Shown here in pieces: positions 40,795 to 64,000 of a stretch of 64,000 bases of DNA. A program made the translations under genes and the position numbers. The notes beneath the pieces were generated by a model, which saw nothing but the letters and a program-made list of their open reading frames with translations, had not been told where the DNA came from and made no database searches. The stretch lies in NCBI GenBank assembly GCA_004431415.1, contig QPMI01000587.1, forward strand, positions 45,205 through 109,204. Reading direction: 5' to 3'. Every line of letters begins with the position of its first letter. The stretch's first letter is position 1. The DNA is from Cyanophora paradoxa CCMP329. Its lineage: Eukaryota > Plantae > Glaucophyta.

Positions 40795-40910
40795 CTAGTA
40801 GAGTAGTGGTAGTTAGTGGAAATCGTGGAAAATTGGAACGGAAGTGGTTTAAGAATTTTTTTTCTGATGAGCTGTGGTGGAAGCGAGATACCCCTGCTTA
40901 AAAGCATTTT

Positions 40911-43549: not shown

Positions 43550-44375
43550 ATGATGAACGTCTGACAATTTTTTCTGTTTTTAAACCCTTGCGAGGCTCTG
43601 ATGCTATTCATCAGCTCCGAGCTGCTTCCAGTTGGAAGAACATCCGCCCTCGGCGCCTCTGCTTTTCTTCGGCGACGAGGAGGGCGTTCATGAGTTAGCT
43701 GAGGTTTTGAATGCCACACACGTTGCCGATGTACACCGAAATGATCTCGGAACTCCAACGATAGGAGCCTTGTTCGCTGCCGCTTTCCTTCATTCGAACT
43801 CGTGTGTCCTGGAATTCGGACATTTCTCTATCGAGATCAGTCGGGATCGTCATGTCTCGATCGAGATCTCTAGCAAGTCTGCTTTGACGATCTGAAAACC
43901 TTCTTAATGGTTGGAAGAAGGCATACTATTTCATTGGCATCGAATGCGCGGATCTCTGATTTTTTTCGGAGGCAATTCTTCTCGAGTTGAGCGAAGGTCA
44001 TGCAGACGAAGATGGAGCTCTTGATTACTTTGTTTACAAGGGATTTCTGGCAGAATCAGACAATTCCGAACTTCGCGATTGGACGGTTCGCATCGGATAG
44101 CTGGCTGCTCGCTGCGGCATTAAATTCTTCACGAGCCGTTGTAGATGCTAGTGATGTTGTGCGGGCAATTCATCCGTTTCATGTCTATACTCACTCCGGC
44201 ACAAATGAATCATGGAATCCGAAAAAATTCAGCTGAGGCCCAGCACAATTTAGAGCTGGCTTCTTTAAGCACAGAGCAAATTATTTCATCAAGGCTCCGA
44301 TCTGTGCATCTGAAACTTTGCATGACGGATGCAGCCTCTGTCTATATCTGCAATATGCAGGGGGAGAATCGGTAA
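43550..44375 (+). pseudogene. GT-A-like glycosyltransferase, frameshifted or spliced
   Basis: Pieces TIFSVFKPLRG..Q.RA..SW, LFFGDEEG..GTP and IPNFAIGR..DSWL..DAS..AIH in different frames. Confidence 0.5.
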
Positions 44376-45022
44376 GTTGAGCAAAAGTGCGGGGGCAAAA
44401 TAGGTGAGCAAAGGCACAAAAGCATCATGAAATCAGCCTCGGGTCATCAGCTCGGTGGGATACGAAGAGGCTTCTGTTTTCGCTGTCATGCTGTTTGTGT
44501 GTCGGATTCATCGCTTCCCCGATTTTTGTTTTTTTGGCAGCGCGGATCACGAACAACGGTTCATGATCAAAGCTCATCCCAACAATCGACGATGAATGAC
44601 TTGAAACAATCATTGATGTCTGAAAAGCGGATTGCCTGACCGCGTAACGATTATTGTGTATTGACAATGACTTACAAGACCGATAAATAGAATGCATGGC
44701 AATTAAGGAATACGGCTAAATGATCGCTTGCCCATTGATCTTGCCGCGGGGGAGTGACCCAGAGGGTGGCGTATAGGGGCCAGATCTGACCTGGTCCTTT
44801 CCCGTCCAAAGGTGTGTTTTTCGGCGATCAATCATTTCAAGTTCGAGGCCCCCGAGGGGGCAAGAAGTGTTGTATTTGTCGGTGGAAAAAGCTTTGGGAT
44901 TCCATGGTTGGGCGATGGGGGCGAACCGCAATCCCCCTGAGTCGCTCTGTGCCCCATGATTCGTTGATATGTCAGTTGAATTCTCAGTTTGTGCAGCTCT
45001 TGCCCATGCCCAGCCCTAGCCC

Positions 45023-46357
45023 ATGAAGGCAACGCATTTGTTTTTCACATACGCATGCCCTCTCTCTCAAGCGATTATTCTTCTTCGACACGAGGATTTC
45101 AATTTCATTGAATGTGTGTCAATAGTCTGTGTGAACTATCTTTTCCGCTCGCAACAGTCATGTGTGTCCTTGCCGGATCTCGATAGCGCGTTTTTTGCGG
45201 GATCGTGGGTGGTTCAACTCAACACTCCGAAAATTCAACTTAAAGATTTCGACGTCGTTCGCAAATCTTTGCTATCTGCCCCGTTGAGTTTAGAGAACCC
45301 CAACGTTGCATGGGTAGTCCCCCTGCGAGCAGTTTCGTTTCGCTCCCCACTTGTGGTAAACCACGAGGATCTTGCTTCTTTGCGGCATATAGCAGTTGCC
45401 AAGAAATGCGATGAAATCGATCTCACTAGAACTGCCCCAAACCCTCCTTACCCGTGGTGCTGGGGACGGAACTTTAAAATGCATTTTTCAAGGCACCAAG
45501 CCGTGATTACTGTCCAAAACGTCATCATTGGACGAAGTGGAGTCGTGTACGATAGCAGCAAGTTCTACTCGTATGAACCATCGTTCATCATTGAATCAAC
45601 ACCAGAAGATGATGTTGAGCGATGTGTCGAGTTTACTGAAATTGCTCTTGCAATTGCCGAGTGGTATCATCAAGGATATCATCTGTTCATGGAAGCCTTT
45701 CCTCGGTTTCTGTTTGTGTTGGACTTCTTTCGCCAGAATACGCATCTGCCCCTTATTGTCCATGGCAGCACAAAGACCTTTTGGATCGAGATGTTTTCTA
45801 TCTTACATCTTGACGCTAGCCGCCTACTGACCACCACAAATTGTGCAATAAGAGCGAGCATTGCTTTTCTCTCTCTGTTTGCTGATTTTCGATTTGGATA
45901 TGTCCACATGGAATCCTTACTCCTTATCAGAGAAGCGTTCAAAGATCATATCTTGAACCAGACCCAGTCTATTGTTGTTGTCGATCGGACAGGCTTCCAA
46001 AGGAATTTTCATGCAACAGGGAAATTGATCCAGTTACTTGAAAAACATTTTTCACCGTCCAAAGTGGTACCATTTAGAGGCCACCAACTTTCTAGAGTGG
46101 AGCAAGCGAAGATATTCAGCTCAGCGAGAATTATCATTGGACCACATGGTCAAGACTTCGCTAATCTTGTCTTTTGCAATCGAGGCACACTGGTTTTTGA
46201 ACTGCTTCCAATTGAAGGGAATTGCCATAATTATCATATGATATCAGAACTTCTTCAATTGCGCTATGTTGCTTTACCATGGGGTACATGCCATGATTGT
46301 AATTTTGACAATGTATATCCTGAAAGAATTATGGCTGCTGTGAAGCTGCTGACCTGA
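45023..46357 (+). CDS. GT61-like glycosyltransferase
   Basis: GYHLFMEAFPR; EQAKIFSSARIIIGPHGQDFANLVF; VFELLP. Confidence 0.88.
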   Translation: MKATHLFFTYACPLSQAIILLRHEDFNFIECVSIVCVNYLFRSQQSCVSLPDLDSAFFAGSWVVQLNTPKIQLKDFDVVRKSLLSAPLSLENPNVAWVVPLRAVSFRSPLVVNHEDLASLRHIAVAKKCDEIDLTRTAPNPPYPWCWGRNFKMHFSRHQAVITVQNVIIGRSGVVYDSSKFYSYEPSFIIESTPEDDVERCVEFTEIALAIAEWYHQGYHLFMEAFPRFLFVLDFFRQNTHLPLIVHGSTKTFWIEMFSILHLDASRLLTTTNCAIRASIAFLSLFADFRFGYVHMESLLLIREAFKDHILNQTQSIVVVDRTGFQRNFHATGKLIQLLEKHFSPSKVVPFRGHQLSRVEQAKIFSSARIIIGPHGQDFANLVFCNRGTLVFELLPIEGNCHNYHMISELLQLRYVALPWGTCHDCNFDNVYPERIMAAVKLLT

Positions 46358-46509
46358 AGTCTTCTGAAATAATGAATGAAGAATCTGCACCCCCAAAAAC
46401 ACTTATTCTACTGAAATGATGAATGAATCTACCAAAAAAATGAATGAAGAGTCTGGCCCCCCAGCAAAAACTAAAACACCTGAATCCTTGCGAAATCCAT
46501 TGCCCACCA

Positions 46510-46712
46510 TTATCAGGAATGCAGGAGCCGGATCCTGGAACATTTGTGTGGGTTGGAGGCCACTGGGGGGAAACCCCTGCCCCCCCAACTGAGGCCCTGT
46601 AATAGGCTCGGACATTCCGAGTGGGACTCCCACTGAGTGTTTAGGGATTTGAACTTCATCTTGGGTTCACTCCCTCTCCACCTTGGTGCACCTGCCAAAG
46701 GCTAGCGCCTTG
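46510..46712. repeat. Host repeat copy interrupted by the virus-like element
   Basis: gctagcgccttg stops where other copies continue tgcat. Confidence 0.75.
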
Positions 46713-47088
46713 ATGAAATTTAAAAATATATATGAGGGCCATCAATGGGCCAAACGCGAAAAGTCAACTCCGAGAGCTCGAGACTCGGAAGTGACGCTTA
46801 GATTGCGGAGGTTCTTATAACCGCCGCAACAGCTGTGGGGGTACCCCCTCCGAGGCTGGCGATCGCGGCGATCACGACCCTGGCGATCGCGATTTTCTCC
46901 CGATCGCGACCCTTTTCGATCGCGATTTCGAGATCGGGGACATTAATGCGATCGCGAGAAAGGAAAAATCGGAAAAGGCCGAAAAGTGCCGTTTTCACGC
47001 GTGAAATCGATCGAAAACGAGGGTTCGAATCCCGGGCCCGGATTTGGACTTGGTCAGAATCTCGAGTCAAAATGGGAGAAAAATGTGA

Positions 47089-47150
47089 CCTGGGACTTGG
47101 GACTTGGGACTTGGGACTTGGGACTTGGGACTTGGGAAGAGTTAGAATCA
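47089..47150 (+). repeat. (TGGGACT)6 plus TGGGAAGAGTT cassette, copy 1
   Basis: Directly visible. Confidence 0.95.
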
Positions 47151-47194
47151 GAGTCTGGACTCAAAAGCGGGGAAATTTTCGGACGGGGAGAAAA

Positions 47195-47683
47195 ATGTCA
47201 GGCAATCTCTATTACGATTTCCCCTTTGAGTTGAATATGGCATTCGAGAGGCTGCGCGAGTTCTGGCGTTGGCACCTCACAGGACATGACATTCCCGACA
47301 TAACACCAGAGCCCAACACACAGGGCGTGCTTGAAGTCATCCGTCAATATCCGCGTCGATTCAATGAATGGATCGAGTTCCACGCAACGAACCGTTTCCA
47401 GAGTCTCCCCGAGGCCATACGCGAAAATTTCGTGAGGCTGGTGGGACCAGGCTACGACAACCCTAACAATCATAGACCACGCCCAGCTGGCGTGACGCGC
47501 GAAGCTCGAGAAGACCGTAGACTTTTCCGCAGGGAATTGAGAGAGGATAGACGGAGGCTTTCAATGGGGCTCCCGCAGATTGTGAGGGGGTACAGCCCGG
47601 ATTACGAGACTTACCAAGAATTGTACGGCTTCGAAAATCCCTTGAGAGGGTACTACCAGGGTGAGGGCCAGGGGGGCCCCTGA
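47195..47683 (+). CDS. Hypothetical viral protein (162 aa)
   Basis: ATG in AAAAATG context after TTTTCGG motif; open frame. Confidence 0.6.
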   Translation: MSGNLYYDFPFELNMAFERLREFWRWHLTGHDIPDITPEPNTQGVLEVIRQYPRRFNEWIEFHATNRFQSLPEAIRENFVRLVGPGYDNPNNHRPRPAGVTREAREDRRLFRRELREDRRRLSMGLPQIVRGYSPDYETYQELYGFENPLRGYYQGEGQGGP

Positions 47684-47998
47684 GGGTGTACCCCCGGCCC
47701 GAGACTCGACCTTCGGCGGACGCACTCGGGCGATTTCCGTCAGGCCGGCTCCTTTTTCTGCCTTCGGCCAACGCTAAATTTGGCTTTTTTCAGGCCAGTT
47801 GGCAACGTTTTCCGTTGCGAACTAGACCGCGAAAAAAATCGCCACAAAACCGCGGTCCGCCGCCATTTTGGCTCACTCTTGAAACGGGTTCGCCGCCTTC
47901 TCTCAGCCCAAGGAATCCCGCCTCTCCGAATTTTCACAAGTCCGCTCTCTCAGTCACCTCACGTTTTGCCTTTGCTGATCTCTCTTCCCTTTGCGCAG

Positions 47999-49046
47999 AT
48001 GTCGATTCCCTCTGAGCTTGTCGAGGACCTTGCCAAGGCCGCGAGATGTGGACTAAGTCCGCGATTGGCCTACCCGTGAAATGGAGAAGCGTGCCCGCAA
48101 GCTGGGGTACCTCTACCAAGCTCACAGCGGAGAAGGCTTCATACCATCAACCTCAACTTTGTATCCTCCCTTCTGCCCAAGTCCAAGCAACCCAAGCCCG
48201 AGCCCAAGCCCGAGCCCGTCGACGTGCCCCCGTCCCCGGCTGGGTCAAGACTCCCACTGGCTGGGGCGACCCCAAGCTTTTCGCCGAGTCTGCCGCCGAG
48301 ACGCTCGCCTGGGCCTATCCCCCTCAAGTCTTCACGAATTTCCCCCTCCGTCATCGTCGTCATCTGCCCCTCAGCCCGTCGCCGAGCCCGCTCCCGAGCC
48401 AGTCGATGACGCCGAGTCCGAGGCCTCTGACGCCGAGTCTGACATCAACGACTTTATCGACTTTGACGTGCCGATTCAATACGACTCTGAGTCCTCTTCC
48501 GACTCTGAAGGCGACAACGAAAACCCGACTCGCAAGCGCCGCATTATCAAGACCAAGTCAATCGTCAAGAAGAAGTTCATGGAGACCACGTCATTCACCG
48601 ACAACTCCGAGCGAGTCAAGAATCCCGCCAAGGAACACGAAAAAGACTTGAAGATCGGCGCTGGCATTGCCCGTTCTCGCGTGACGTCACACTTCAGCAA
48701 GCGCCTGACTCAGCACGTCAAGATCATTGAGAAGCGCATCATCGCCAAGCGCGAAATGGCCGAACTCCGGCGCAAGTTGCGTCACGAGCGCCTTCTTCGT
48801 CGCGAGATGACGCTGGCCAAGATTGCCGAGCGCAAGAAGAAGGAGGCAGCGGAACTTAGGGCGCGCGTCGAGGCTCAGCAGCGGCGCGAGGCAGAGGCGG
48901 CAGCGGCCTTGGCGGCGCAGCGCGAGCAGGAGCGGCAGGACTTAGTGCAGGCAGCGCAGGCCCTTCCCCGCATTCCCCTTAAGTCCACGCCCGAGGCCCC
49001 GATTGACTTGGTTTCCGACGATGACTCTGATTTTGAGATGCTGTAA
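47999..49046 (+). CDS. Hypothetical viral protein: Pro/Ser-rich, acidic, then basic coiled coil (5' part frameshifted)
   Basis: ORF 48081-49046; RKRRIIK NLS-like; ends PIDLVSDDDSD; upstream ATG at 47999. Confidence 0.55.
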
Positions 49047-49117
49047 ATAGTATTGCGTCATTCCACTGTACATACTGGTAAAAATTGGCCGACTATTCAG
49101 TTATGACTTGGCGCGAT

Positions 49118-49185
49118 CCTGGGACTTGGGACTTGGGACTTGGGACTTGGGACTTGGGACTTGGGAAGAGTTAGACTCAGGGTCT
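49118..49185 (+). repeat. (TGGGACT)6 cassette, copy 2
   Basis: Directly visible. Confidence 0.95.
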
Positions 49186-49464
49186 GGGCCCAGAGTTTCA
49201 CTGGATCCGAGAGTTTGCTGCACCAAGTCACTAACCACCGGGCAGACATTTCGAGGGGTACGGAAATCCGCATACGACGTTTCTGGTGACATTCCAGGTG
49301 AGATTTCAAGTGTGATGTCGTGTGACAGGGGGTACGATTACGGTTACGAAAGATGGTAAGAGTAAAAAAGACTACGAGTAAAAAAGACTATGATTAAAAA
49401 AGTCGGTAGAAAAACTCACCTGACTTGTCTGACAAATTTCTGATCCTGGAGAAAGTCTGGGACG

Positions 49465-49525
49465 GGACCTGGGTTTCAACTCTTCCCAAGTCCCAAGTCC
49501 CAAGTCCCAAGTCCCAAGTCCCAGG
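49465..49525 (-). repeat. (TGGGACT)5 cassette, copy 3 (inverted)
   Basis: aactcttccca(agtccca)5gg. Confidence 0.95.
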
Positions 49526-49546
49526 TTTTTCCGAACCTAGGGCAAA

Positions 49547-49912
49547 ATGGCCCTGCTCCGGTGCACCGACTCGCAAGACGTCGCCTACAACGTCCTGGTC
49601 AACTCGGACGTACCCCCGAGTGCCTTGGAGTTTCCCTGGAGAGTGGACAGGGACAGGGTGAGCAAGACATTTGGAGGACGCAAGCACTACCTCTCCCAAC
49701 TGATCCTCGGGAAGTCGCCACGTGGACGCTACGTGGAACACATCAACGGCAACCCGCTGGACTACAGGAGGGAGAACCTGCGCTGGGTATCGATGTCGGA
49801 GATTCGAAAGAAGAGGAGGGGGTACAGCGATCTACAGGGGAAGAGCGAGGAGATTGCGGAGATGATGGAGGCGGCGCAGGCGCTAGTGCAGCTCAGCCAG
49901 TCTAGACGCTAG
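49547..49912 (+). CDS. HNH endonuclease-domain protein (HNH_3-like)
   Basis: YVEHINGNPLDYRRENLRWVS. Confidence 0.85.
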   Translation: MALLRCTDSQDVAYNVLVNSDVPPSALEFPWRVDRDRVSKTFGGRKHYLSQLILGKSPRGRYVEHINGNPLDYRRENLRWVSMSEIRKKRRGYSDLQGKSEEIAEMMEAAQALVQLSQSRR

Positions 49913-50684
49913 TGGTGTGGATCTTAGTGTCGTACTCGCGGTCAATCGTGCTCCAGGCCACGTAGTTCGTAGCGGTGCCGTTTGCAAGGTTGGTGGTGGC
50001 AGTCGTGTAGTCAGCCTCCGCCTCTATCAACTCAGCCATGAGCGTAGAACCCACGACCATTCCAGAGGTAGGCATACCCGCAATGTTGTTGTACAATTTG
50101 AAAGTGAATTTCGTGAAGAGGAGCCGGGGCCAGACCTGGGTACGGGGATTCGAGGAGTCGAAAGCAAAGGCAGTACCCGAGGCGCCGCCCGTGGTGGCAT
50201 TCGTCATCATTTCCTTTGCGGTCATCTTCCAGAGATTGTACATCTCAAAGGGGACGGCCTGCGTGGTCTTGTGAGTGGCATCGATGGCGGCGCCGTCTAT
50301 GTGGGTCTTGGAGCCGCCGTTAAAGGTGCGAGTGAGGGCGGTGTTCGCAGTGAACTTGAGCTCGAGCACTCGGATTGCGGGCCGATCCGGCACGGAGGGC
50401 TCTATCTTTTTCAGGAGGCCAGAGAGCCAGAGGGCCTCCGCCTCGTCCGCGCTCACACCCGAGTCGATGTCAAAGTACACGTACACGGAGCAGGAGGCGG
50501 GATTCTCGAAATCGTTGGAGGTGACGCGCAGCATGATCGGATTCTGGATCTTCACGGTCAGCATGGAGGCGTAGCTGCCGTCCCAGACCACGGAATCCGT
50601 CCCGGCGTTGGCCGCTGCGACATCGCCGTAGAAATCGGGGGTGGGCAGCACGGTCTTCACGATGGTGCTCGAGGTGGAAGGCAT
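49902..50684 (-). CDS. Beta-rich putative virion protein, paralog 2
   Basis: ATG at 50684 (AAAATG); shares QNP, FD, SGL.KK, R.LE.KF and PR..FT.F.F with 50708-51388. Confidence 0.65.
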   Translation of the reverse strand: MPSTSSTIVKTVLPTPDFYGDVAAANAGTDSVVWDGSYASMLTVKIQNPIMLRVTSNDFENPASCSVYVYFDIDSGVSADEAEALWLSGLLKKIEPSVPDRPAIRVLELKFTANTALTRTFNGGSKTHIDGAAIDATHKTTQAVPFEMYNLWKMTAKEMMTNATTGGASGTAFAFDSSNPRTQVWPRLLFTKFTFKLYNNIAGMPTSGMVVGSTLMAELIEAEADYTTATTNLANGTATNYVAWSTIDREYDTKIHTTSV

Positions 50685-50707
50685 TTTGCGACCTCGGATG
50701 AGAAAGA

Positions 50708-51388
50708 TTATCCGTAGAAGAGGGCGATGTCGTTGCCGATGCCCGAGAGGCGGGCGGCGGGCTGCACGGCGTCGGAGCCCGTGGTGTGCCTGTAGGAAAT
50801 CGAGCACTCGCGCAGCTCCGCGCAGAGGCTGGGGCCCGTGCTGAAGTGGGGCTGGTCGGCGGCGTAGGGGAGGGGGAAGACCTGGAACTTGAAGAAGGTG
50901 AAGGGGAAGCGGGGTAGCCCGGAAGCGCGCGGATTGCCGCCCGTGTAGAGGGCTCCCAGGGTCGCGGGACTCGGATTGAATTTCGTGAAGAGCACGTCGC
51001 CCTTAAGCGTACCCCGCGCCGTGTACGCACCCGTACCCGGTAGACTGTTGTCGGTGTACTGGTTCACGGTGGGGCCGTACCCCGTCTCCCTGAACTTTAC
51101 CTCGAGACAGCGCAGGACGTTGGCCGTGGCCGTGGCAGGCGCGACCTTTTTCACGAGGCCGGATTCGTGCAGCAGCTCGATTACCTCTGCGCTGAGGCTC
51201 AAAGGGTCGAAGAAGAGCTGGTAGGAGTAGATCTTGGGCGTGGCGTAGGCGTTCTGAACGGCCTGAATCACGACGGGATTTTGCAGAAAGACGTCCACGT
51301 AGCTGCCAGAGGAGATGCGTGCGAAATCCTTGGCGTTGGTACCAACATCCAGATCACCTTTGAGGGTCTGGTACCAGTTGGAAGTCAT
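50708..51388 (-). CDS. Beta-rich putative virion protein, paralog 1
   Basis: TAAATG start; motif colinearity with 49902-50684. Confidence 0.65.
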   Translation of the reverse strand: MTSNWYQTLKGDLDVGTNAKDFARISSGSYVDVFLQNPVVIQAVQNAYATPKIYSYQLFFDPLSLSAEVIELLHESGLVKKVAPATATANVLRCLEVKFRETGYGPTVNQYTDNSLPGTGAYTARGTLKGDVLFTKFNPSPATLGALYTGGNPRASGLPRFPFTFFKFQVFPLPYAADQPHFSTGPSLCAELRECSISYRHTTGSDAVQPAARLSGIGNDIALFYG

Positions 51389-51425
51389 TTACACCGGGGC
51401 AGATATTTTTTCGGACTTGGGGGAA

Positions 51426-53441
51426 ATGAGGAGGGTGAAGCGCATTGTGTTGATGAGGCGGAGAGGGCCACGTCCCCTTGGACCCCCACAGAACGTGTCG
51501 GTTACGCGCGTGCCTGGTCAGTTTGCGGCTTTGATTGTGTGGTCCCCTGCCGCTGAAGCGGAAGGCTATGGTGTGAGTCGCACGGTTGGAAGTATAACGG
51601 GCACCCCTATCATTTTCAGTAATGTCACTTCACCATTCACGAACTCCAACCTACTCCCTGGTCGCCTCTACCTCTACACGGTCTTCTCCTACCGGGATCT
51701 GACCGACTCGGGGGGACATATGAAGATTGCGGTGCCCCCATTGTCAGTATCATGATGCCCACGTCGCTCACATCCTCCACCTCCCAAACCTACGGCGATT
51801 TCATTGCGGGGGAGGCCCCACATCGCAGTCCGTACCCCTCCCCACTGTGGTTGTCACCATCAACTGGGAGGCCTTCGTGGACCCCGTCGACGAGATTCGC
51901 ATTTACAGGGATGGTGCATTTAACGGCATCGCAAACAATGCGCTATCGACCTCGTACACGGACGACAGCAACTCCCTGGTGCGCGGCACGCAGTACTCCT
52001 ACCAGGTAGCACCCGTTGTGGGCGGCATCGAGTACGAAAAGTCCGACCCGATATTGGCCTGGACGGTACCGAACGCGCCCACGAACGTGATTGCGAGCGC
52101 GCCCAACGACCAGCAGCAGCCTGTGAGCCTCACCTGGACGGCGTCCATGGGAGCGACGGGGTACAAGATCTACAGGGGCGGGGCCTACCTCGCAACCTCC
52201 GCGACCAACTCCTACAGCGACGCGACCACGATCTGGGGTACGGGGTACGAGTTCCAGGTCTCCGCGACGAACTCGGGGGGCGAGGGGCCGAAGGGCATTA
52301 CAGTCTACGTCACAACGGACCCGGGGGCGCCCACCGGGCTCACTGCAACTCCAACGGCGGGGGCAGCCCAGCCTGTGGTGCTTGCGTGGTCCGCGCCGGC
52401 GATGGGCGTCACCGTCTCCTACAACATCTACAGGGACGGCGTTTTCCTTGCGAACGACACCAGCAGCCCGTATTCGGATACAACAACAGCCTATGAAACC
52501 ACTTACACTTACATCGTCAAGGGTGTCAATCAGATTGGCGAGGAAGGCCCCCCATCGTCGTCAACAAGCGCAACTACTGCAACCGCTCCTGTTCTGGCTA
52601 CATTCTCCTACACCGGAGCTCCCCAGACCTGGGTCGTACCGACAGGGACTATGGCCATTCGTGTCATCATGTGGGCAGCCGGGGGTGGAGGCGGAGAGCA
52701 TGCTGGTTCGGGGGTCCGGGGGCGCGGGTGCTTGTGTCGTTGGTACACTGGCCGTGTCCTCGGGGAAACGCTCATCCTTGTCGTTGGATGCGGTGGTCCG
52801 AAAGGTGTATCGGGGACTGCCACTGCTACTGTCTACGGAGGGGGCGGAAGGGGCTGGAGTCATAGCATCGACCCGGAATACAAAAACGGTGCCGGTGGTG
52901 GGCGTTCTGCGATCCAACGCATTTCTGGGACCGATTTGGTCGTTGCCGGGGGTGGGGTGGGGTACATGCGATTCATCCGGAGGCGGAGGAGTAGGCGGGG
53001 GGCTGACCGGTGGTTCTGCTGAACCGGTTGGCTTAGCCAGTGAGGTGCCAGCTCAAGGAGGCACTCAATCCTCTGGTGGAGCCGGTGTTGTAGCAACAGG
53101 GGCCAGGCCCAGCAACCCAGGAACTTTACGCCAAGGTGGTGAGCCCGGCCCTGATCCAAACGGCTGGAGGTGGGCGCTGGGGCGGCGGCGGTTACTTCGG
53201 TGGGGGTTCTGGGTCCAGCAAGAGCGGAGTGCCTGAGGCCCCGTTAGCAAGAATGTTTGGAGGTGGCGGCGGCTCGAGCTACATTGGCAACTTGACGAAC
53301 GCTACGACCTACCCCGGGTCAGGGCAAACGGCAGGAAACAGCGACAGTCCCCACTACGTTGCTGGCATTGGCAGGGGTGGGAATGGTGGGTCAACGTTCA
53401 GCGATGGCGGCCACGGTCACATAGTGATCTCGGTGGTCTGA
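51426..53441 (+). CDS. Fibronectin type III repeat protein with C-terminal glycine-rich domain (several frameshifts)
   Basis: Repeated P..P.....L.W......Y.IYRDG....Y.D....Y.Y.V; FSYTGAPQTWVVP; GGGGSSY..DGGHGHIVIS. Confidence 0.8.
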
Positions 53442-53451
53442 TATCCATTTG

Positions 53452-54515
53452 TTATTGGTTCTGCAAAGCGGCTACCTGGTCTTTGAGTGTTTGAACTTCC
53501 TGTGCAAGTTCTTGTACTGCTTTCAGCGTCAAGGAAATAAGCCTGTCATAGTTTACCCCCAAAAATCCATCCGCGTTTTCAAAAACAAGGTTCGGCAAGA
53601 CACCTTGAACTTCCTGTGCAATGAGACCGTAATCAATTTTCGAGCCCCCGGAGGTTGTGTTGATCCAATTAAAGGACACAGGGTTCAACTGCAGTAAAAG
53701 AGGGAGAATGTTTGCCAGGCTGGTGATATTTGCTTTCAGGCGGCGATCGCTCGAGGAGTTTGTAAGGTTACCACTGGCATTGGAATAAACGGCCCTGTTT
53801 CCGTCGCCTGTGAGCGATGAGACGATGAGCTGACCCGTTATACCCACGCCGACGGTTCCGCACAGCAGTCGATCGCCGCCATTGTATTTCAAGGTTAGGC
53901 CAGCGGTGACACTCCCACAATCGATTATTGTAGTGTTTTGCATAGACAGGCCGCCAGAAGGGCCTTCGACGGTTGAGGCGAATAGTTTACCCGTTATACC
54001 GACACCTTCAGTCCCGCACAACAGCCGATCCGAGTCACCGTACTTTAGATTTAAGCCGCCGCCACCGCCTGCAATGGTCGGAGTTGTCCCGTGTATGTAG
54101 ACGCTGTTGTCCAGTGCTACTGTACCTGCTACCGATGCATTTCCGTTCACTCTTAGCCCACCCACCACGTTTGCCCCGCCCCCCTGCACGTACAGCGCTG
54201 CGTTCCCTCTCCATCCGCAGCTCCGTTAAAGGTTAGGGCGTTTGTGGTGTGACCACTCCCGTCCCAGGAGCCGTTCGTGACGGTGAGCCTCTGCGTCTTC
54301 ACGCGCCCCGGCACGGCCGATCCGCCCTCCCGCGTGCGCATCTTATCGCAGCGCAGCTCGCCGACTCGCACGAGATCGGCCTCGGAGAAGGGGACGGCCG
54401 TGGCGTTGTAGGGGGCCTCGGTGGCCTGGTTTCCGAGGGTGGTCTCCTTAATCGTGTGATCGCCCTTGTGATTCACGCTGGCAGCGTAGGTGAACAAAGG
54501 AACAGCAACTGACAT
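53452..54515 (-). CDS. Fibre protein with C-terminal Peptidase_S74-type intramolecular chaperone (frameshift ~54190)
   Basis: SSDRRLKANI..LNPVSFNW..GLIAQEV..VNYDRLISLTLKAVQEL plus coiled coil; two LKY..DRLLCGT.GVGITG repeats. Confidence 0.88.
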
Positions 54516-54539
54516 TTTTGGATTGCATCAGAAAATCGA

Positions 54540-57500
54540 TTACATAAGCAGCTTGCCCGCTGCCATCCAGTAGATCGTGAGCCGTTTAGATTCGATGATC
54601 GTTTCTGACATCGTGGGCCTGAACCTCACTCTGACGACAAATCCGGTGTAGGTGACGTCGTAGACGTTCACTGTCATGTCGACATCCACTCCAAGTTTTA
54701 TGGATGGGGTAACTGTTACGTTTGGCGGTGGGTTCCCCCCTGGCTGGGGCCATACAGGTAACAAGCCACCACCTGCGTCGTACGCTTCCGGGAAACTCAT
54801 GTTGAACGTGACAATGTATGTTGTGTTGAGATCGAAAGCCGTGTTCGCGGAGTACGTGTGAAAGAAAGTGCCGTGTTGAATGTAAGCGTCCATGTTCACG
54901 TTTCTGTGCCCGTGGCCGGTGAGCGAGTACTCTGTGTGACTGTGCGTAGAGGGGGGGAAGGTGAGAGGCTTCCCCGTAACTTGAGTCTCCCAGTCCACGT
55001 TGTGACTGTGAGTCGAGGGGGGGAAGGTGAGAGGCTTCCCCGTAACTTGAGTTTCCCAGTCCACGGTGACGCCTGACAAGTCCGGGGCCGTCCAGTCGCT
55101 GATTTCTGAGATGGTGTGCTGGTGATCTGCGTGGGGGTACGTGCTCGGCTTCCCCGTGATGTTACCCCACGCCCAAGTTGCTGGAATTGTCGGTATCATC
55201 GGCCTCCCTTTTAGATCTTGGTACTCTCCTGTATGCGCCACGGCCGCCAGCTGCGGTACGGCAACGCCCACGGTGCTGACGGCCTGGCTCGCCCCCGGCG
55301 CCATGTGCCACTCGTAGTTCTGCGATGCAAACACGGGCTGGCCTGGCTCGGGTGCCCAGTACTCGATGCCTTTGGCGATCTTTTTGGTGTAAGGGGCTGC
55401 AGGCCTGTCCACCAATTTATCGACGTACGCCTTGGGTACCAGCCAGTTGGCCTTGGGGCTCTGCGAATTAATCCCGTTGTCTATGAAGGCCCCGTAATTC
55501 CTGAAGGCCTCGGCCTCCCACCAATCCTGCATGCGGAAGGTCCCGGGAATTTCAAGGCGCGAGTTAGCGTCCGCCAGGCGGGCCACCTGCGCGCCTCCGT
55601 TCGACGAGACGCCCGAGTGACGGATGGCCGAGCCGAATTCGCGCCTTAATGCCTCGATGTGATTGATTCTGTTGAGGCCCTCCTGGTAGACGGCTATTAA
55701 GACGCGCTTCCGCCCCTTGGTCTCCTCCTTCACCATCTGCTTCAAATCGCGCATCAGCCGACTCAGGGCGAGCGAGGTCGACCCGAATCCCTCCTGCATT
55801 TTAACGGTGAGCTGAGAGAGGAAGAGCACGGTCGCCGTCAATTTCGAGCAGAGTCTTCTGGTCCTTGGGGGTACGGTAATCGTTGATGCTGTTATCGAGC
55901 GCGCGAATGAAGCCTGCAGCTCTTCGGCTCCTTATTTCGTTTAACCGCAGCTCCTGCGCCAAGAGCGAGGCCATTTCGCGCGCCTCCGAGGGGTCGTACA
56001 CACCCAAAACCGGAGCCCAGCTCGCCCTCTACCTATTAATTCGGTTGCGCAATTGGCTCGCCTCGTCGCCCCACGTCTCGACGCCCCAGTCGTAGATCTG
56101 TTGCGAGAGCTGCGCGATGAACTGATGGTATCGGCGCCCAGTCGACGGGGTACTTGAAGAAGTTCTTCACGATTTCTTCCGCGCTGCGCCCGTTGATATA
56201 TCCACGATCACCTGCGCGATGGCGCCCGCGAGGATGGACAGGCCAAGTCCCCCACCGTGCCGATCCTCATTTTCGTGAGGGCGCTCAGGGCGGACGACAT
56301 GCCCGTCTGCAGGCCAAAGGAGCCGACCGTCATGATCATCTGATCGCGGAACGTATCGAAGAACTCGCCTCCCTATCTGCCCTGCGAGAGCGCCTGGTAG
56401 GCCGAGAGCAGGCCGCCCGCCGTCGCCAGCCCAAGGCCGGCCGCCGCCGCGCCCGCCCGCCGCATGGCCCGCGAGCCCGTACCCCCAGCCCGGCGCCCAC
56501 CAAGTCGATCCCGCCCCTGAAATAAATCGGCTGCCCGAAAGACATGCCTCGTTGTTCGCCGTACCCGCCGCGAGAAGAGCGTCTCGGCGCTGAGGGCCTC
56601 CTTGGCCACCCCGGGCCGCCTTGCCCTCGGGCGCCCCAGGTAGGCGTCGCGCTGCTCTTTGGTGGTAAATCGCTCGAGGTCGAAATCCGCAAGGGCGTCG
56701 GCGGTGGCGCGGTTCCAGTCGCCGTAGGGCATCAGGGCGTTGCGCAAAATAACGTCCGAGTCGCCCATCACGCGCCTGTCGAGCGTCTGGAATACGCCCT
56801 CGGAGGGCAGGCGAGCTGTGCCCGGGCGCATTTCCTCCACGGAAACGTCGTCCCTCTCCGCGAGCGTGATATCGTCCGGGCTGGCCGAGCCACGCCCGCG
56901 CCCTCGTCGGCGTAGGCCCTTCCCCTCCTTTTTAACAGTTGATTGGCCTCCCGTTCAATGCTTGGTACTCTGTTCTACCTTGGTCTTTCTGCCTCTTCCT
57001 CTGCCGCCTTGCGCTCTGCGATCTTCCGCCTCTGCTCTTCTATCTCGGCGTTGCGTCTCGCCGCGTTCTCCTTGCCTGCTGCTTCGCTCTTCGATCACCT
57101 GTTTGCGTACTCCTTGTCCGCTTGGGCCTTTCTGTAGCGCTCCTCGATCTGACTCTTGGCCTCGTCTCCTCTCTTCCTTAGTTCGCCTATGAACGCCGTT
57201 GTATCTATGTAAAGCTTGTATTTGGCGGGTGGATGCTCACGTTTAAGGCCTCCAGATCGCGCACCATGGCGTCGTACTGTGCAAGCCCCTCCGCTGGAAT
57301 GACGGCTCTTCGCTTTTCCCAAAACTTGCTCAGCTTCTCCACGTAATTGACCATGCCGACGTACGCGCTCTGTGCGCCGATGCTCACCGTTTTCGGATTG
57401 GCTCGCAGCTCTGCCAGAAACTCCCGCTTGTACATCCCGTACATTGACGATTCGAGGCCCCCGCCACAGGCTCGCTTCGTCCGCAGTTCGCGGTGCATCT

Positions 57501-59546
57501 CCTCCGCGTCGCCGTATGCTATCCAGATGGCATCGCTGATGGCCTCTGAACTGCTTGCGCTCAAAGTTTTTCCACTTCTCATCGGCCATCTTTCTCCTCA
57601 GTCTTCGCGTCTTTCTGGCCCCTCCGACAGCTGGTTCATCACATATGTGAATCGTGAATGTCATCCCCGAGAGCTCGTATTTTCTCGCCGTTGCGCGATT
57701 CGTTCTCTTCAGCTCTCGCATCTTTGCCCCATGCATCGAGGGTGCGTTCTTGAAGGCCTCGAGGGCCCTCTTCCGCCCCGCAACCTTTGGCTCTCCAGAC
57801 GTGCAAATTCCTCGTCGATGCAGTTTGCATTGCCTTCAGTCGTTCCTCTTCTGTCTTGGCGCGCCTCTCGTCGCCCTGCGCCGCTGCTCTAACGCATCGA
57901 AGAGGGCCCTCTGGTCCTCGATCGTGAGGCCGATGAGCTCTTCACCTGGTCGCTCCTACCCAGACGCGCAAAGGGTAGCCTCTCGCGCCGGCCTGGATCG
58001 GGCCTTGGCGTCGTCTGCGTCTCCATTGTGCCCCTTGGCACAGCCGTCCTATCCTCTGCAGCTCGGCCGTCAGCGTTTCACTTGCTGCTCTAGGTGAATC
58101 GTATGTGATGCGACCCCTCTGCCTTCGCCTCTCCTGTCTCGCAGTTCGAGCTGCCTTAAATCCTCCTTTGCTTTTCTGGCTGCTCCTCCGCTCCTTTCGC
58201 TCATCGTCCAGCATCTTTGTCCTCTTCGACCTCGTTTGCTATGTTGACCTGTTTCATTTCCATGTCCAGTTTCTTCGGTCCTTGCCTGCTCCTTGCCTCC
58301 CTTATCGCTTTCCACATCCTATCGGCCTCTCTCTTCGATCTCGCTTTCCCTCGGCCTCCAGATTCTCAATTCTATCGCTCGCCTCTTCAAATCGTCCGCT
58401 ATCTTTTCTCGCGCTGTCCTCATTCGTTAATGCCGCTCCTGTCTTCAGCTCCTCGCCAGTATCTCCCTGCTCGTCTGAGTAACGATCGTTTTGTTATCTT
58501 CTGCAGCTCTGCAATGTCCTTTCGTACGCCTTCCGATCCCTGTAGTACTTTGCACCGCCTGCAATCAGGGCCGCGCCGAAGATTCCCGTTGTGTACCAAG
58601 GATCGGCACGAGCGTACCCCTCCGCCGTCTCCGCCGAGCCGCCGCCACCCGAGCCGCTGCTACCCCCGCCCCCTCCCACGGGCGTGCCACTGAGCCCCCT
58701 CCACCCGTACCCCGCCTGTACCCCACCCCCCGTACCCCCACCCTCCCACCCCTGTACCCCGCCTCCCGTGCTTCCGCCGCCCGTACCCCCACCCGGAATC
58801 GCGCCCGGCACCTTGGGCCCGCCGATGATGTCGTCGTACAGGTGGCGGTGCGCCCAGTCCGTGATGTCGGCCTTCACTGCGGGTGCTTGACGAGGGCGTA
58901 CCTCTCGTCGTGGAAGTGGTCCTTCAGCGCCCAGTTCTGCGTTTCGCCCAGTCGAGCGATCGGGGAGCACGTCGGGTGCCGTTGGGATGCGGCCCCCGCC
59001 CGTCGTCTCCGGCGTCTCGCCCGTCCTGTCGGCGCTCAGGGCGCGGATGTTCACCTTGAAGTGGTCGAACCACGCGAAAAACTCCTCCCTGTCGCGCCTG
59101 TACTGGTCGGGCTCCATGCTCGGCAGCGCCTGGCGGCTCCAGTAGATGTGGCGCAGGGGGCCCGCGATGCGCTCGAGCGCGTTGTACCCGGGCCTCACGT
59201 CTCCCTCTGCGCCCTTTAGAGTCAGTTTCACGAGGTTCAGGGTGGCGTCCTTTGAGGTGACCGAGTTTGCGATTTTCACGTCGGCCGCCCTCTTGATAAT
59301 GTTCCAGTCCACGCCCGTCTCGGTCGTGACGCCCCAAAGCCCCTTGATAATTGCGGTGAGGTCACCGTAATCGTCCAAGGTACCGACGGACGTCAGGAAA
59401 TCGCTGTAGGTCGCGCCCTTGCGCAGCCGAATCTCGTCCGCGTAAATTCCCCTCACGCTCAGGCTCCCGTCTATCGCGAAGGCGCCGTTCAGCACCTCGT
59501 CCGGATTCGGGATGGCCATGCGCCAGGGGTCGTCGAGCATCGACAT
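54540..59546 (-). CDS. Very large putative virion/fibre protein (~5 kb, multiply frameshifted): Gly linker, coiled coil, fibre repeats, H-type-lectin-like tip
   Basis: Overlapping ORF pieces tile 59546-54540; LAAVAHTGEYQDLKGRP; HQHTISEI; two VDWETQVTGKPLTFPPSTHSH; PPNVTVT..VTYTGFVVRV..YWMAAG. Confidence 0.6.
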
Positions 59547-60032
59547 TTTATCCGCGAGAGAGAAAAATTAACTAATGCTCCGCGTCCCACGTCCACTTCA
59601 GCTTGCCGCTCACCTCGCCCGTTGTCCAGCGGCCCACGGGCACCTGCCAGAAAACGTCGGCGTAGGGTAATCGGGCCTGATAGTGATCTGCTCGTCACGC
59701 AGCCAGCGGTAGGCCTCGGAGCATCGCGTATTTTCGGCTCCCAGTATTCCCCGCCCGCGCCGTTCGGCAGCGAGTACCCCTCCCTTGCTACCCGTACCCT
59801 GTAGAAGTGCTCGCCCGTTAGCGTGTCTACCCCCTGTACTCGAATTCTACGATTAAGGCCAAGTCCTGCATGCGCTCTCGCCGAGACGGATGTGACTGAG
59901 GCTGTGCAGCAGCCCGCATTTAATTGGACCAGAGGCGGTTACAAGATCGACTCTGTAAGTGAGGGTGAGGGGTAGCCTGGCACGCCCGCAAAGGTGCGCG
60001 TCTTGACGCCCGAGCCCTTCCGCGGAATATGA

Positions 60033-60509
60033 TCAGGCGCATTTAAGGGGCCTGCGAAAATCTATTTCGCAAAGGCCCAGAGGCGAAGTTCTTGACGATG
60101 AAGGCGTTGTTCTTCTGGTGGCGCCCGTGATGTCGGTGAAGCGCACGCGCAGCTCCTGGAACTTGTCGTACGCGACGTAGTTCGGGCGCACGGCCATGGG
60201 CACCTCGAACCAGTAGAGGATGGTGTTCTCGAGGCCGTCGTGGCCCCACGTCGGGATCACGACCTTGTTGATGCACGAGTTCACGTTCGAGATGGTCGTG
60301 ACGTTCAAGTCGGGCACGTCCATCAGCAGAACGTTGACGGTTTTCGCGGCGGTGGGGTCCGGAATCGCGGTCGTATCCAGCTCCAGGTAGACTCCCTTGA
60401 TCTGCAGCGTGTCGATGTCGGCGGGGATCTGGTTCAGCCTGAGGCGCCAGAAGCCCTCGGAATCCTGCGTCTCTCCGTTCGACTGGACGTAGAGGTTGAC
60501 GCAGGACAT
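60033..60509 (-). CDS. Putative minor capsid (penton-like single jelly-roll) protein
   Basis: ~150-aa beta-rich ORF with the pattern LYVQS..L.L..LLMDVP.LN..VIP..KFQELRVRFTDITG; recognised by eye only. Confidence 0.55.
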   Translation of the reverse strand: MSCVNLYVQSNGETQDSEGFWRLRLNQIPADIDTLQIKGVYLELDTTAIPDPTAAKTVNVLLMDVPDLNVTTISNVNSCINKVVIPTWGHDGLENTILYWFEVPMAVRPNYVAYDKFQELRVRFTDITGATRRTTPSSSRTSPLGLCEIDFRRPLKCA

Positions 60510-60740
60510 TATTTAGGAAGGGGCCTGAGAAATTATGCCTTCCTCAGGCCGTGAGGAGGTAGGGCCCCACGAAGTAGTAGCCCGCGAACTGCGCGGCGAG
60601 GATCCGCACGAGGTAGTAGCGGCGGGCGACATGTAGGCGACCGCGCCGAGGGTCAGCAGGCTGCCCAGGTAGCGGGAATCGCTGGTGATATCATCGAGGC
60701 TCGGGAGCAGGACGACATTGTTAAGGGCCCATTCAGAAAT

Positions 60741-60953
60741 TTACTTGGGCATGAAGAAATTCCTCACCCGCTCCCCCTCCTCGTGCAGCGCCCACTGCAG
60801 CCGGTCGATGACGGCGGCCATCACGGGCGGGCTCGCGGCGGGGTTTTTCGCGTACGCCCTGGCGTCCTCTGCCATCTGGGGGTGGTACTGCTCGACCCGC
60901 TTGGCGTAGCTCGCGATGGCGCGGCGGGTGCACCGATCCAGGTCAGCCGCCAT
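60741..60953 (-). CDS. Small hypothetical viral protein (70 aa)
   Basis: AAATG start; stop abuts a TTTCT spacer. Confidence 0.5.
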   Translation of the reverse strand: MAADLDRCTRRAIASYAKRVEQYHPQMAEDARAYAKNPAASPPVMAAVIDRLQWALHEEGERVRNFFMPK

Positions 60954-61386
60954 TTCGGCCGGCTCCTTCGCTGCTGCTGCTTCTTTCGCGCGTAAGTCCT
61001 AAGAAGCCAAGGGAACGCTGTGCTGGTGCTGGTGCTCGTACTGTTGCTGCTGCTGCCGGGCAGGACGACGGAGCCTCTGCGCTGGGGGCTGTTGTCGCGG
61101 GAGTCTCCATTTCCCATTTCTCTAGAAAAAAACGCGTACCGGTCTGCGTCATCTGGATGTCCACGTGGTGCGGGCCGATCGCCTGCACGCTCTCGCGCCT
61201 CTGCTGCTCGGGTGGGGGCTCGGGCTCGGCTCGCCGCGACGCACGACCCTCAGGGCCGCCGCCTTCAGGGCGCCCAGCACGGTGTTGGGACGCACGCGCT
61301 CCGTGCCGCCCAGGAGCTCGGAAACCAGGAAGAGCGCGCCGCAGATTACGTGATGACGTCCGAGTGGGTGCATGCCCCTCGAACAT
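60943..61386 (-). CDS. Small membrane-associated viral protein (frameshifted)
   Basis: Hydrophobic VICGALFLVSELLG..NTVL segment near the ATG at 61386. Confidence 0.4.
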   Translation of the reverse strand: MFEGHAPTRTSSRNLRRALPGFRAPGRHGARASQHRAGRPEGGGPEGRASRRAEPEPPPEQQRRESVQAIGPHHVDIQMTQTGTRFFLEKWEMETPATTAPSAEAPSSCPAAAATVRAPAPAQRSLGFLGLTRERSSSSEGAGRNGG

Positions 61387-61407
61387 CTTGCGGGCGCGTC
61401 AGAACAA

Positions 61408-63424
61408 TTACCCGCTACCCCTGCCCTTCCGCGCCCCTTGCCCTTTCCGCGCCCTCGGCCCTGGCCCTCAGATCGCCGATTTCCGCGGCCTGCGCGCAAA
61501 GCGGGGTCGTCCGCCTGGCCGGCGTCCGCTTGGAAAATCGTGAAGAGGTACCCGTCCGTGTTGTTGTCGGTGTTGTTCGTGTTTCGCGCGTGCGACCACT
61601 CTTTCAGTAAATCGCGCCTCTGCTTGTCGGGCAGCGTCTTCGAGAGGTACTCCTGCAGCTTGCTCGCGTAATTTTCCTCCGGAATCAGCGACGCAAGGAC
61701 GGTGGGCGGATCTTCCCCATGCCTATCTTCTCTTCCGTCAGCATGCGCTCGAGCTCTGCGATTTCCACCATCGTATCGATGCTCGCTGCGGTCCTGCCTC
61801 TGCTCTCTTCTGGTCTACGAGGCGCTGCCCGGCCGCTGTGAATTTCGCGGACAGAATTTGGTGCAGCCGCTCGTACACCGTCGTGGTGCCCGGCTCCTTC
61901 TCCTTGAGCAGCACCACCCAGTCGTAATTCGCCCACAAGCACCTGCAAATTCGATATGTGATCGATCGTCACCAGCACGTGGGCGTGCAGCGCCCCGTCC
62001 GTCGGCCCCACCTCACGCCCCTTGCACGCGAATTCCGATGATTGCGTTGGCGTACGTGTCGTCCTTGTACTTGCCGTTCTCCTCCTTCAAATTGAAGCGG
62101 ATGAACTTGTAGAATTCTGCGTCCGAGAGCACCTCTGCGAGGCTGTCGCGCAGCGCCGCCGCCTCGAATTCTCGCGCCTCTCCCAGGCGCTTGTGGTGTT
62201 GAAGAGCACCCAGTAGCGCGACTGGCGCGCCTGTCGTATGTCGTACCGCGTGCTTCCGTCGGGATTCTTTTGTTGAGGATGAAGACCGACCGCCCCGTCT
62301 CGCTGATTTCCGTGATCACCTTCTCGAGCGCCTCCAGCCCGTTTGCCTGCGCCGCCTGCAGTCCCGTTTTCGCCTTCTCTATGTTCTGCTTTACCTCTTG
62401 CGCGTCCGCGAAGGTTGCCATTAAATCTTCCATGCTCGGCGCCACGATTTTCGCCTTTCTGATTTTCGACTGCGCAGAGTTGGGCTCGATGACGGACGAT
62501 CCGAAGTCAGCGGCCGTATCCTTTGCCTTTTTCGTGGTCTTTGGCTTCGGCCCGCCGAGCACGCTCTCGACCATGTGGTCGCGCGTCTGCTTGGAGACGG
62601 TGGCCGTGTCGCCCCTCTTTCGCCTCTGCAGGCCCAAGATCACGAGCAGGCCCTTGTTGCCGAGCAGCGTGACGCACTTCTGGCAGAGCCACGAGTTTCT
62701 GGGCGACACCGTGGGCACCTGCGCCGGCTTCTTGTCCTTGATGAGGGGGTACGGCTCCTGGCCCTTTTCTTTCCCTTGCCGTTTTGCTTGGCCGCCCACG
62801 CGTTTGCCTTCTCTATGACCGCGACGTACTCTTCGTACACGGCATCCTTCCTCGCCTGCGCTGCCTCCCTCGCGGCGATTTTCTCTGGCGTGTTGGCCCC
62901 CTTGGCGCTCGGCACGGGCGTGGCTTCGTACATGAGGCGAAGGCAGCGGTAGCAGATTGGCGGCGATTTCTGCGCGCTCTGGTACGTGCGCGGTATGGCG
63001 CGCAGTCGCTCCTCGGGGAGTTTATCGTACTCGATTTCGCTGTGGATGCTCCAGAGGGTCGCGGCTCGTGGTATGATTTATCGAGCAGCGATGGGAGCAT
63101 CTGAACTTCTTTGGTGGCCGAGAGCTTGATGTATCGGATATGCTCTTCTGCTGCTGGAATATGCCGTCCTCGCCCTGAACCAGCACGTATCGCTTCGGAA
63201 TCTCAACGACGGGCGTCTCGAGCTCGTCCACGCCGGTATCGGGCGCGTTTCCCTTTGCCTTTCCCTTTCCCTTCCCCTTGCCCTTGCCCTTCGGCTTAGG
63301 CTCCGGCTCCTCTTCCTCTTCCTCCTTCTTCCTCCGACTCGGAGGACGGGGACGTGGGCTCCTCTTCCTCTGACTCGCTCGAGCTCTCTGGCTTCTTCTT
63401 GCGGCCTCGGCGCTTCGGAGGCAT
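61408..63424 (-). CDS. Long HUH-domain protein: NLS/acidic N-terminus, two CxxC pairs, C-terminal HUH endonuclease (frameshifted)
   Basis: MPPKRRGRKKK; CYRC, CQKC; YWVLFNT; EVGPTDGALHAHVLV (61979-61987); LIPEENYASKLQEYLSKT (~61640). Confidence 0.75.
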
Positions 63425-63445
63425 TTATTGGACACGAGAAAAAAT

Positions 63446-64000
63446 TTACACGAGCTTTACAGCGCCCGTCTCGAGGGCCTCTACCGTCTTCGTAATGTAC
63501 AGCTGCAGCAGATCCTTAAGGTTGCTCTGCGGCAGCAATTTTACGTCTACGTGCATCTGCCTGGCGGTTTCTCGCTTCCTGTAGCCGTCTCCTTGCCCGT
63601 CCACTGCATGCCGAGGCGTCCTTTCTCCGTATCGGCCGCACCGCCGTCTTCTGGTACTCCTCCCCGAACAGTCTCCTTGTAGAAATTCGGCAGGCCGCCC
63701 TGCCCCTCCGTTGCATGAACTTGATGAGGAAATCCGACGCCTTCTTGCCGTCGAATTGCACGCGCGAGTAGTCACCAGCGTGAGCAGGATGTGCGCGTGG
63801 AGCCGCCCCGACCGCGGCCCGTACTCGATGCCGATGTTCGCGTTGCCCTTCTCCACGTGCGTGTCGTACTGGTCGACTTGAAATCGAAGCCCTTGGGTTC
63901 GCCTTGTCGGGGTACACCCCCATCTTTATGCACCGCGCCAGCTGCCTGTCGTCGTAGAAGAGGGCCTCCAGCCCCCTGTGAAACGCGTCCTGCACCTTGG
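63446..64000 (-). CDS. HUH endonuclease (rolling-circle initiator-like), 5' end outside window, frameshifted
   Basis: IEYGPRSGRLHAHILL (63791-63799); LLPQSNLKDLLQLYITKT (~63490). Confidence 0.8.

Follow-up and report, generated by a model that had tools for sequence, protein, structure and literature searches.

Part-way along a 64,000-nucleotide stretch of the Cyanophora paradoxa CCMP329 genome (contig QPMI01000587.1 of assembly GCA_004431415.1; this whole stretch is hereafter the window), repeat-rich host DNA gives way to compact DNA with virion-type genes, which raises the question of what kind of element begins there and how it reached the chromosome. A preliminary description, made from the letters alone, had proposed that positions 46713–64000 are an integrated mriyavirus, a small relative of the nucleocytoviruses. 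We find that the element is indeed integrated in the C. paradoxa chromosome; the proposal had missed that it is not a single insertion but one of dozens of near-identical, young C. paradoxa copies with a common end. We regard it as fairly probable that the window holds the left 17 kb of an integrated multi-copy element that is likely a dwarf double-jelly-roll virus related to the mriyaviruses; its HUH enzymes would initiate rolling-circle copying and likely also join the element to TA runs.

Integration, copies and a common end

Short-read contigs of four runs (X1, X3, X5 and X6) were compared with window positions 44001–47080 at a minimum overlap of 31 letters. X3 and X5 each contain one contig that spans 44001–46753 with no differing letter and extends 41 letters beyond 46712, so that the junction at 46712/46713 is bridged in two of three DNA runs. 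The X6 flank contig stops at 46736, short of the 31-letter rule, and X1 yielded a host-repeat piece only. Because a single error-free contig runs through the junction in both X3 and X5, the junction is no assembly chimera. Each of 20 sequencing runs under one organism label contains 65–75% of the words of 44000–50000. The abrupt switch to host-repeat-free DNA noted earlier is borne out: a host repeat copy (46560–46712, minus strand, start approximate; repeat families D11/D16, motif matches at 46593 and 46692) is truncated at the junction, and two repeat motifs with 13 and 9 matches in 1–46712 have none beyond it. The claim that the element is richer in GC holds against the local flank (0.595 versus 0.489) but not against the host genome mean, given as 67.6% GC in the available text of PMC6704402.

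The sequencing depth of the flank is 89 in X3, 39.5 in X5 and 117 in X6. At the element end, contigs attain 47–53 times these values, and one end variant stands at 33, 30 and 31 times flank depth in X3, X5 and X6, contig depth being no strict measure of copy number. A ratio so nearly constant over three runs is easier to reconcile with chromosomal copies than with free virus. Other flanks are joined just before 46722, 46724 or 46726 in at least six contigs of X3, at least nine of X5 and at least eight of X6, and the high-depth contigs begin at 46734. As the flanks of different copies converge at 46722–46726, the copies have one end in common, at or just inside a short (AT)4 run at 46726–46733. 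This run, marked by loose ends in X3, X5 and X6 and by a scan for TA runs, is likely the target site or the extreme tip of the element. The end common to the copies thus starts at about 46726–46734 and not at 46713. Behind the run lies a terminal unit shared by many copies (46734–46787, plus strand), with which the high-depth contigs start and behind which a further loose end occurs at 46787 in X3, X5 and X6. A 62-nucleotide version of the unit (equivalent to 46726–46787, with 6 differences) stands alone, between TA runs, in a single-copy 8-kb host contig (X5 record 12, X6 record 20); it is possibly a solo copy, an excision footprint or the opposite end of a copy that has diverged.

Gene models give the same picture of a multi-copy family. 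A pair of paralogous genes of the element, encoding 260 and 226 residues, is found on 37 differently named contigs. A search with the short HUH protein described below returned 15 matches among 339 candidates, comprising 11 named C. paradoxa-type gene models, three EukProt entries and the intact JGI protein P0010. Copies of this gene lie on 12 named contigs (the 11 gene models plus one further cluster member), six of which carry a second element gene at most 10 gene numbers away, and all three of the named near-identical copies that were looked up have C. paradoxa accessions. The environmental proteins P0010, P0023, P0024 and P0076, encoded on 1–8-kb contigs, are 40–64% identical to element genes; judged by this identity, they show that relatives of the element exist beyond this strain.

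A pair of HUH genes and its viral relatives

The two HUH genes reported in the preliminary description were both recovered: a short one runs from 63449 off the window edge, and a second forms the C-terminal end of a long, broken open reading frame (ORF). The short gene (63446–64000, minus strand) would encode about 280 residues, with its start beyond the window; it contains motifs II and III, matches the family profile at E 2e-9 and is interrupted by seven base-loss frameshifts. The long gene (61450–63424, minus strand, ends approximate) is likewise frameshifted and was delimited by six-frame reading and collinear profile matches. It would encode about 640 residues with a C-terminal HUH domain containing motifs II and III: three pieces match the HUH profile in order, with E 3e-3 and E 3.5e-7 for the first two and a non-significant score for the third, which contains motif III.

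A search with P0010 gave 129 relatives at E ≤0.001, which comprise proteins of about 220–290 residues, a group of 170–200 residues and proteins of 1000–1900 residues with a C-terminal HUH domain. Motifs I, II (HUH) and III (YxxK) align across this family, and the short HUH protein retains the N-terminal extension of the gamadvirus proteins. In the Atlas, P0010 lies beside rolling-circle Rep clusters (0.93–0.94). The HUH proteins do not fall with Helitron or Replitron transposases but group with viral proteins, as had been supposed; one of 36 family members gave a marginal Helitron_like_N match (E 0.046). Neither a Rep–helicase fusion nor a Replitron-type Rep was found, there being no helicase fused to HUH, and a comparison with 50,697 phage records gave no match. 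By their profile matches, both genes are members of the mriyavirus HUH family.

Trees were built quickly from 148 rows and carefully from 44 of these, the smaller set having neither partial nor very long rows and few of the unlabelled gamadvirus-type ones, and using P0016 as a stand-in for the window copy. The Cyanophora protein joins P0010 and P0076 (99/93) and adjoins an unlabelled group of HUH proteins of 170–200 residues; this sister group of the short HUH stays unlabelled because scans of IMG/VR gave no locus for it. In these trees, the Cyanophora HUH forms a separate lineage of the mriyavirus HUH family.

What kind of virus carries such genes can be read from 16 IMG/VR loci that a search with a 36-row HUH alignment returned, on contigs of 15–44 kb; the label 'gamadvirus-type' for them comes from our own comparison with Table 1 of PMC11253617. 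Ten of the 16 contain two HUH ORFs, and ten contain an ORF of a VLTF3 family whose identity was confirmed in both of the two members scanned. The one IMG/VR record examined whole encodes VLTF3 (E 1e-22) together with an A32 ATPase (E 1e-8). The window has the gene order of these loci, a short HUH gene and, behind it on the same strand, a long ORF with a terminal HUH domain. The element thus shares with Mriyaviricetes a conserved mriyavirus-type HUH endonuclease with relatives on VLTF3- and A32-bearing contigs, and with 'Gamadviridae' the combination of short and long HUH genes, although its long gene is much shorter and the N-terminal part unrelated. Judged by the HUH trees and by the genes in the window, the element does not fall within 'Gamadviridae'.

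Several observations weigh against this reading. A branch at 90/97, which is not starred, separates the Cyanophora HUH from the gamadvirus-type clade, and the long HUH of the element, at about 640 residues versus 1600–2100, is roughly one-third as long as that of gamadviruses. Out of 23 families present in at least three of the 16 loci, HUH alone matches the window (a shadow family on the opposite strand, at E 0.01, was set aside), and profile–profile comparison of the locus families with the window reached a best probability of 1.2%. No capsid, ATPase or VLTF gene is tied to the element; such genes would lie beyond the window. VLTF3 and VLTF2 profiles from the 16 loci did not match the window, and in those loci the VLTF genes stand upstream of HUH, a part that here lies beyond the window. 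Within the 17 kb, RuvC, PD-(D/E)xK, SF3/SF2 helicase and Mriya_1/48/50/51 gave no match; the genes that follow the long HUH in the IMG/VR loci have no match in the window, and a PEV-type gene block was not found there. The refined end is covered by fewer than 31 letters of flank contig, and the limit on depth as a copy count given above belongs here too. Finally, HUH is reported, in the available part of 10.64898/2026.06.19.733378, in about half of the 'Zoravirus' and 28% of the VC218 Polinton-like viruses (PLVs), mostly together with rve. Since HUH also occurs in these rve-bearing viruses, we lean only slightly towards strict membership in Mriyaviricetes. Integration and the mriyavirus-type pair of short and long HUH genes thus remain from the preliminary description, while its class assignment is less secure, the HUH falling outside the gamadvirus-type clade.

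The left arm and its host flank

The 63440–64000 segment aligns to its sister copy P0016 with 155 matches, 6 mismatches and seven frameshifts, all of them base losses; the 260- and 226-residue genes contain no frameshift in the comparison with their sister copies. The published C. paradoxa assembly is described in the accessible text of PMC6704402 as PacBio RSII/Canu. Exclusive base losses, an error-free single-copy flank and an assembly of this type make long-read consensus errors in a multi-copy repeat the likely source of the frameshifts, and by the same comparison the element may be intact.

We scanned 34 element ORFs against Pfam and PHROG. No polymerase, integrase, capsid or A32-like ATPase match was found in the 17.3 kb, in line with the earlier remark that no integrase is visible. 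The HNH endonuclease (49541–49912, plus strand) is confirmed by PF13392 (HNH_3, 49541–49909; E 6e-8) and phrog_99 (E 5e-8). It is followed by the two intact paralogs. The 260-residue ORF (49902–50684, minus strand) lies at 0.79–0.82 to cressdnavirus capsid clusters in the Atlas, a lead that makes it a candidate single-jelly-roll virion protein; it is 85–98.5% identical in the 11 C. paradoxa copies compared and 59–63% identical in two environmental proteins. Its 226-residue paralog (50708–51388, minus strand; 28% identity, E 2e-16) is 86–96% identical over 10 copies compared. Two window ORFs match members of EukProt clusters exactly; one cluster has 2 named members and the other 13, every one of them from C. 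paradoxa, and the 226-residue ORF is the one with 13 named mates.

Next come the genes with fibre-type features, and here the FN3/glycine-rich and S74-chaperone assignments stood up to the family scan. A small fn3-like ORF (51425–51755, plus strand; PF00041 at E 0.005, below cut-off) precedes a frameshifted FN3-repeat glycine-rich protein (51752–53441, plus strand; PF00041 at E 7e-9, PF21722 or Gly_rich_2 weak at E 0.002, phrog_1696 and phrog_11583), the fn3 and weak Gly_rich_2 matches being located at 51724–53019. A fibre gene in two frames (53452–54512, minus strand) ends in an S74 chaperone (PF13884, Peptidase_S74, 53455–54225; E 1e-15) and matches tail-fibre PHROGs. Beyond it, a probable large fibre or virion gene (54540–59548, minus strand) lies in many pieces of presumed continuity, with a 66-nucleotide repeat, a frame profile and a match to phrog_14 (E 2e-8) as evidence for the gene. 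Its last piece contains two 22-residue phage-tail-type repeats within 54543–55931 (PHROG E 2e-8). The giant protein of the preliminary description is thus present as frameshifted pieces only, and no Pfam family matches its supposed lectin tip.

The name 'penton-like' for 60036–60509 likewise found no backing in Pfam. The ORF in question (60033–60509, minus strand; 149 residues in sister copies) is beta-rich with a fold that is not established, is an exact EukProt member and differs from P0060 by two base losses and one mismatch. Its single-sequence AlphaFold model, at pLDDT 34, was unusable, as was the other such model made for the element, at pLDDT 35, with which a Foldseek search gave no match at E <0.001. 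PDB sequence searches and two metagenome scans gave no match, fused gene models of greater length were sought without result, and IMG/VR scans with the 260-residue ORF, P0010, A2, P0060, A6 and A7 gave no locus.

The left terminal region (46726–49540) was delimited from tandem and inverted repeats and the ORF list; it contains hairpins and two orphan ORFs, together with three tandem arrays of G-rich heptamers, of which two are direct and one is inverted. The heptamer arrays, in the first 3 kb of the element, are able to form G-quadruplexes, and an inverted pair surrounds a 251-nucleotide spacer directly before the HNH gene. The first 250 nucleotides or so (46713–46960) fold strongly (z −4.7) and contain a stem-loop (46803–46830, plus strand) whose apex resembles an HUH nick nonamer; it is the sole such site in the window by a pattern chosen after the stem-loop had been seen, and is a candidate origin. 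One orphan ORF encodes 162 residues (47195–47683, plus strand; from the ORF list), the other an acidic, coiled-coil protein frameshifted near its start (48057–49046, plus strand; ORF list and frame profile); neither has a family match. A motif near the element end and near the microsatellite-bounded ends of the IMG/VR contigs L005 and L010 was dropped, as 752 background tiles include 75 and 49, respectively, that align equally well. These two related gamadvirus-type contigs, both lacking a long HUH, have dinucleotide microsatellites at the equivalent boundary (L005:1–62, L010:1768–1842), followed in L005 by direct and inverted 13-nucleotide arrays; they may be integrated copies.

Along the left 46.7 kb of the window lie Ty3-type retrotransposons with long terminal repeats (LTRs), a LINE-like element and glycosyltransferase genes of a single ORF each (GT61, GT31, GT7). 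Identical 300-nucleotide LTRs (17890–18189 and 26904–27203) surround an intact-looking Ty3 element, which is nested in the LINE-like element (ORFs 12578–18057 and 27243–31730). A dispersed host repeat of about 120–200 nucleotides occurs at 36048–36910, 3612–3876, 10223–10435, 12307–12566 and 41557–41855; it is tandem at 36083–36578 and adjoins several retroelement pieces. The flank at 32000–46712, with 47–49% GC and single-ORF GT61 (two), GT31 and GT7 genes in an intron-rich host of far higher mean GC, is possibly foreign DNA of older date, or heterochromatin, in which insertions gather.

Routes of insertion and known systems

How could such an element spread? IS200/IS605, IS91, Helitrons and Replitrons all use an HUH enzyme as their transposase and have terminal hairpins and short targets (PMC10288648). 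In the proposed mechanism, the element would be copied in the nucleus by a rolling circle that its HUH enzymes initiate and a host polymerase extends, a step modelled on PMC11253617, and the nick-and-join reaction of these HUH enzymes would join the fixed end of the element to short TA runs. The precision of the common end suggests that an enzyme, possibly HUH, drives the insertion. We tentatively favour insertion by HUH nick-and-join, by analogy with these transposases; an rve or tyrosine recombinase not seen in the window is a serious possibility, and host repair at TA microhomology seems rather unlikely. The boldest form of the proposal, an intact, integrase-free nucleocytovirus relative that spreads by using HUH as a transposase at TA microsatellites and so forms, in Helitron-like fashion, dozens of potentially inducible proviruses, is conceivable though speculative.

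The rival that survives best, although we think it unlikely, is a Zoravirus/VC218-type PLV with a mriyavirus HUH pair, integrated by an rve or tyrosine recombinase encoded in the right part. The flanks converge on a TA run, and rve integrases have no known preference for such runs. The pair of short and long HUH genes is described for gamadviruses only, and the short HUH has the gamadvirus N-terminal extension; on the other side, the element's HUH stands outside the gamadviruses beside the unlabelled group of 170–200 residues, and HUH and rve occur together in the PLV groups, as the available part of 10.64898/2026.06.19.733378 reports. The accessible text of PMC12220804 describes a two-tail-repeat H-lectin fibre from 'a PLV of Cyanophora paradoxa' that resembles 54540–55931. 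Its Table S6, whose columns are shifted by one at some point and so can be read with some uncertainty, counts 85 of 156 glaucophyte elements with rve and 49 with pPolB, a further point against a mriyavirus origin, whereas the counts for HNH (40), S74 (37) and D5-type primase–helicase (38–40) fit the family size and not the rve count, a weak argument under the same uncertainty.

It is improbable that the element is a capsid-less, Helitron- or Replitron-like HUH transposon derived from a dwarf virus with fibre genes as cargo. Such a transposon would account for the precise common end, the terminal hairpins, the TA target, the dozens of young copies, the short terminal-unit copy and the lack of a major capsid gene in 17 kb. 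However, the HUH relatives are viral, the element retains about 10 kb of virion-type genes, two of them intact at 85–98% identity across copies, the genome holds 366 viral capsid genes (PMC10120064, available part), and Replitrons were not detected in glaucophytes according to the accessible text of PMC10288648. Free virus or phage DNA mis-joined to the host in the assembly is largely refuted and hardly tenable: the assembled element contains many errors and its composition is unlike that of the flank, but the junction is bridged by short-read contigs from separate samples of different years, the depth ratios stay the same in three runs, many other flanks have the same end, and there is no phage match, the signs of a tailed-phage contaminant (terminase, HK97 capsid, a separate contig) being absent and PHROG matching fibre and HNH genes only.

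Parts of this picture are already in print, including the host link and an integrated mriyavirus-like element in C. paradoxa. In the available texts, the 366 endogenous-virus capsid genes of C. paradoxa fall into two clusters, with HHpred matches to nucleocytovirus capsids for five examples (PMC10120064); 156 glaucophyte elements are tabulated (PMC12220804); Mriyaviricetes-related regions are embedded in a Glaucocystophyceae assembly and such regions are read as mainly accidental insertions (10.1101/2025.04.19.649669); mriyaviruses are described without integration genes (10.64898/2026.06.19.733378); and methylated viral regions are reported in C. paradoxa (PMC12344493). The element is probably already among these catalogued viruses. 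They share with it the host, capsid genes, a tail-repeat fibre and a Mriyaviricetes-related region, whereas the HUH pair, common end and TA target do not appear in the accessible parts of their descriptions (PMC10120064; PMC12220804; 10.1101/2025.04.19.649669; PMC12344493). The literature covered, which takes in few subscription journals, yielded no description of the family's ends or of HUH-mediated viral integration. What is new is the precise common end, the TA target, the probable intactness and the separate HUH lineage, which adds a branch outside the gamadvirus clade. Dozens of young copies with one end on different TA-run flanks point to an active, enzyme-driven route, in contrast to the earlier reading as accidents. 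As C. paradoxa has axenic growth and methylome data (PMC12344493), it offers a direct test of how mriyaviruses complete their life cycle, of the rolling-circle model, which is unproven, and of what the second HUH does.

Among known systems, Replitrons, Helitrons, IS200/IS605 and IS91 resemble the element in their HUH enzyme, terminal hairpins, short target motif and gain of copies, but belong to other HUH families and have no virion genes (PMC10288648, accessible text). The 'Zoravirus' VC102, VC218 and VC134 PLVs combine a nucleocytovirus-like capsid module with an integrating lifestyle and, in some members, HUH; unlike the 17 kb of the element, they mostly have rve or a tyrosine recombinase, and no HUH pair is described in the available part of 10.64898/2026.06.19.733378. 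Yaraviridae, compared by description only, likewise have a stand-alone HUH and no polymerase seen, although yaraviruses are described with one HUH. The closest likeness is to 'Gamadviridae'. Apart from the branch and gene length weighed above, the element differs from them in that the other 22 conserved locus families have no match in the window, in a left arm of phage-type fibres, FN3 and HNH genes, and in its dozens of copies. As described in the accessible texts of PMC11253617 and 10.1101/2022.07.28.501842, Pleurochrysis endemic viruses and Phaglo-G have the same HUH family, the same-strand pair of a short and a long, C-terminal HUH gene, and an algal host, and Phaglo-G, too, lies within an algal assembly with short tandem repeats at its flanks.

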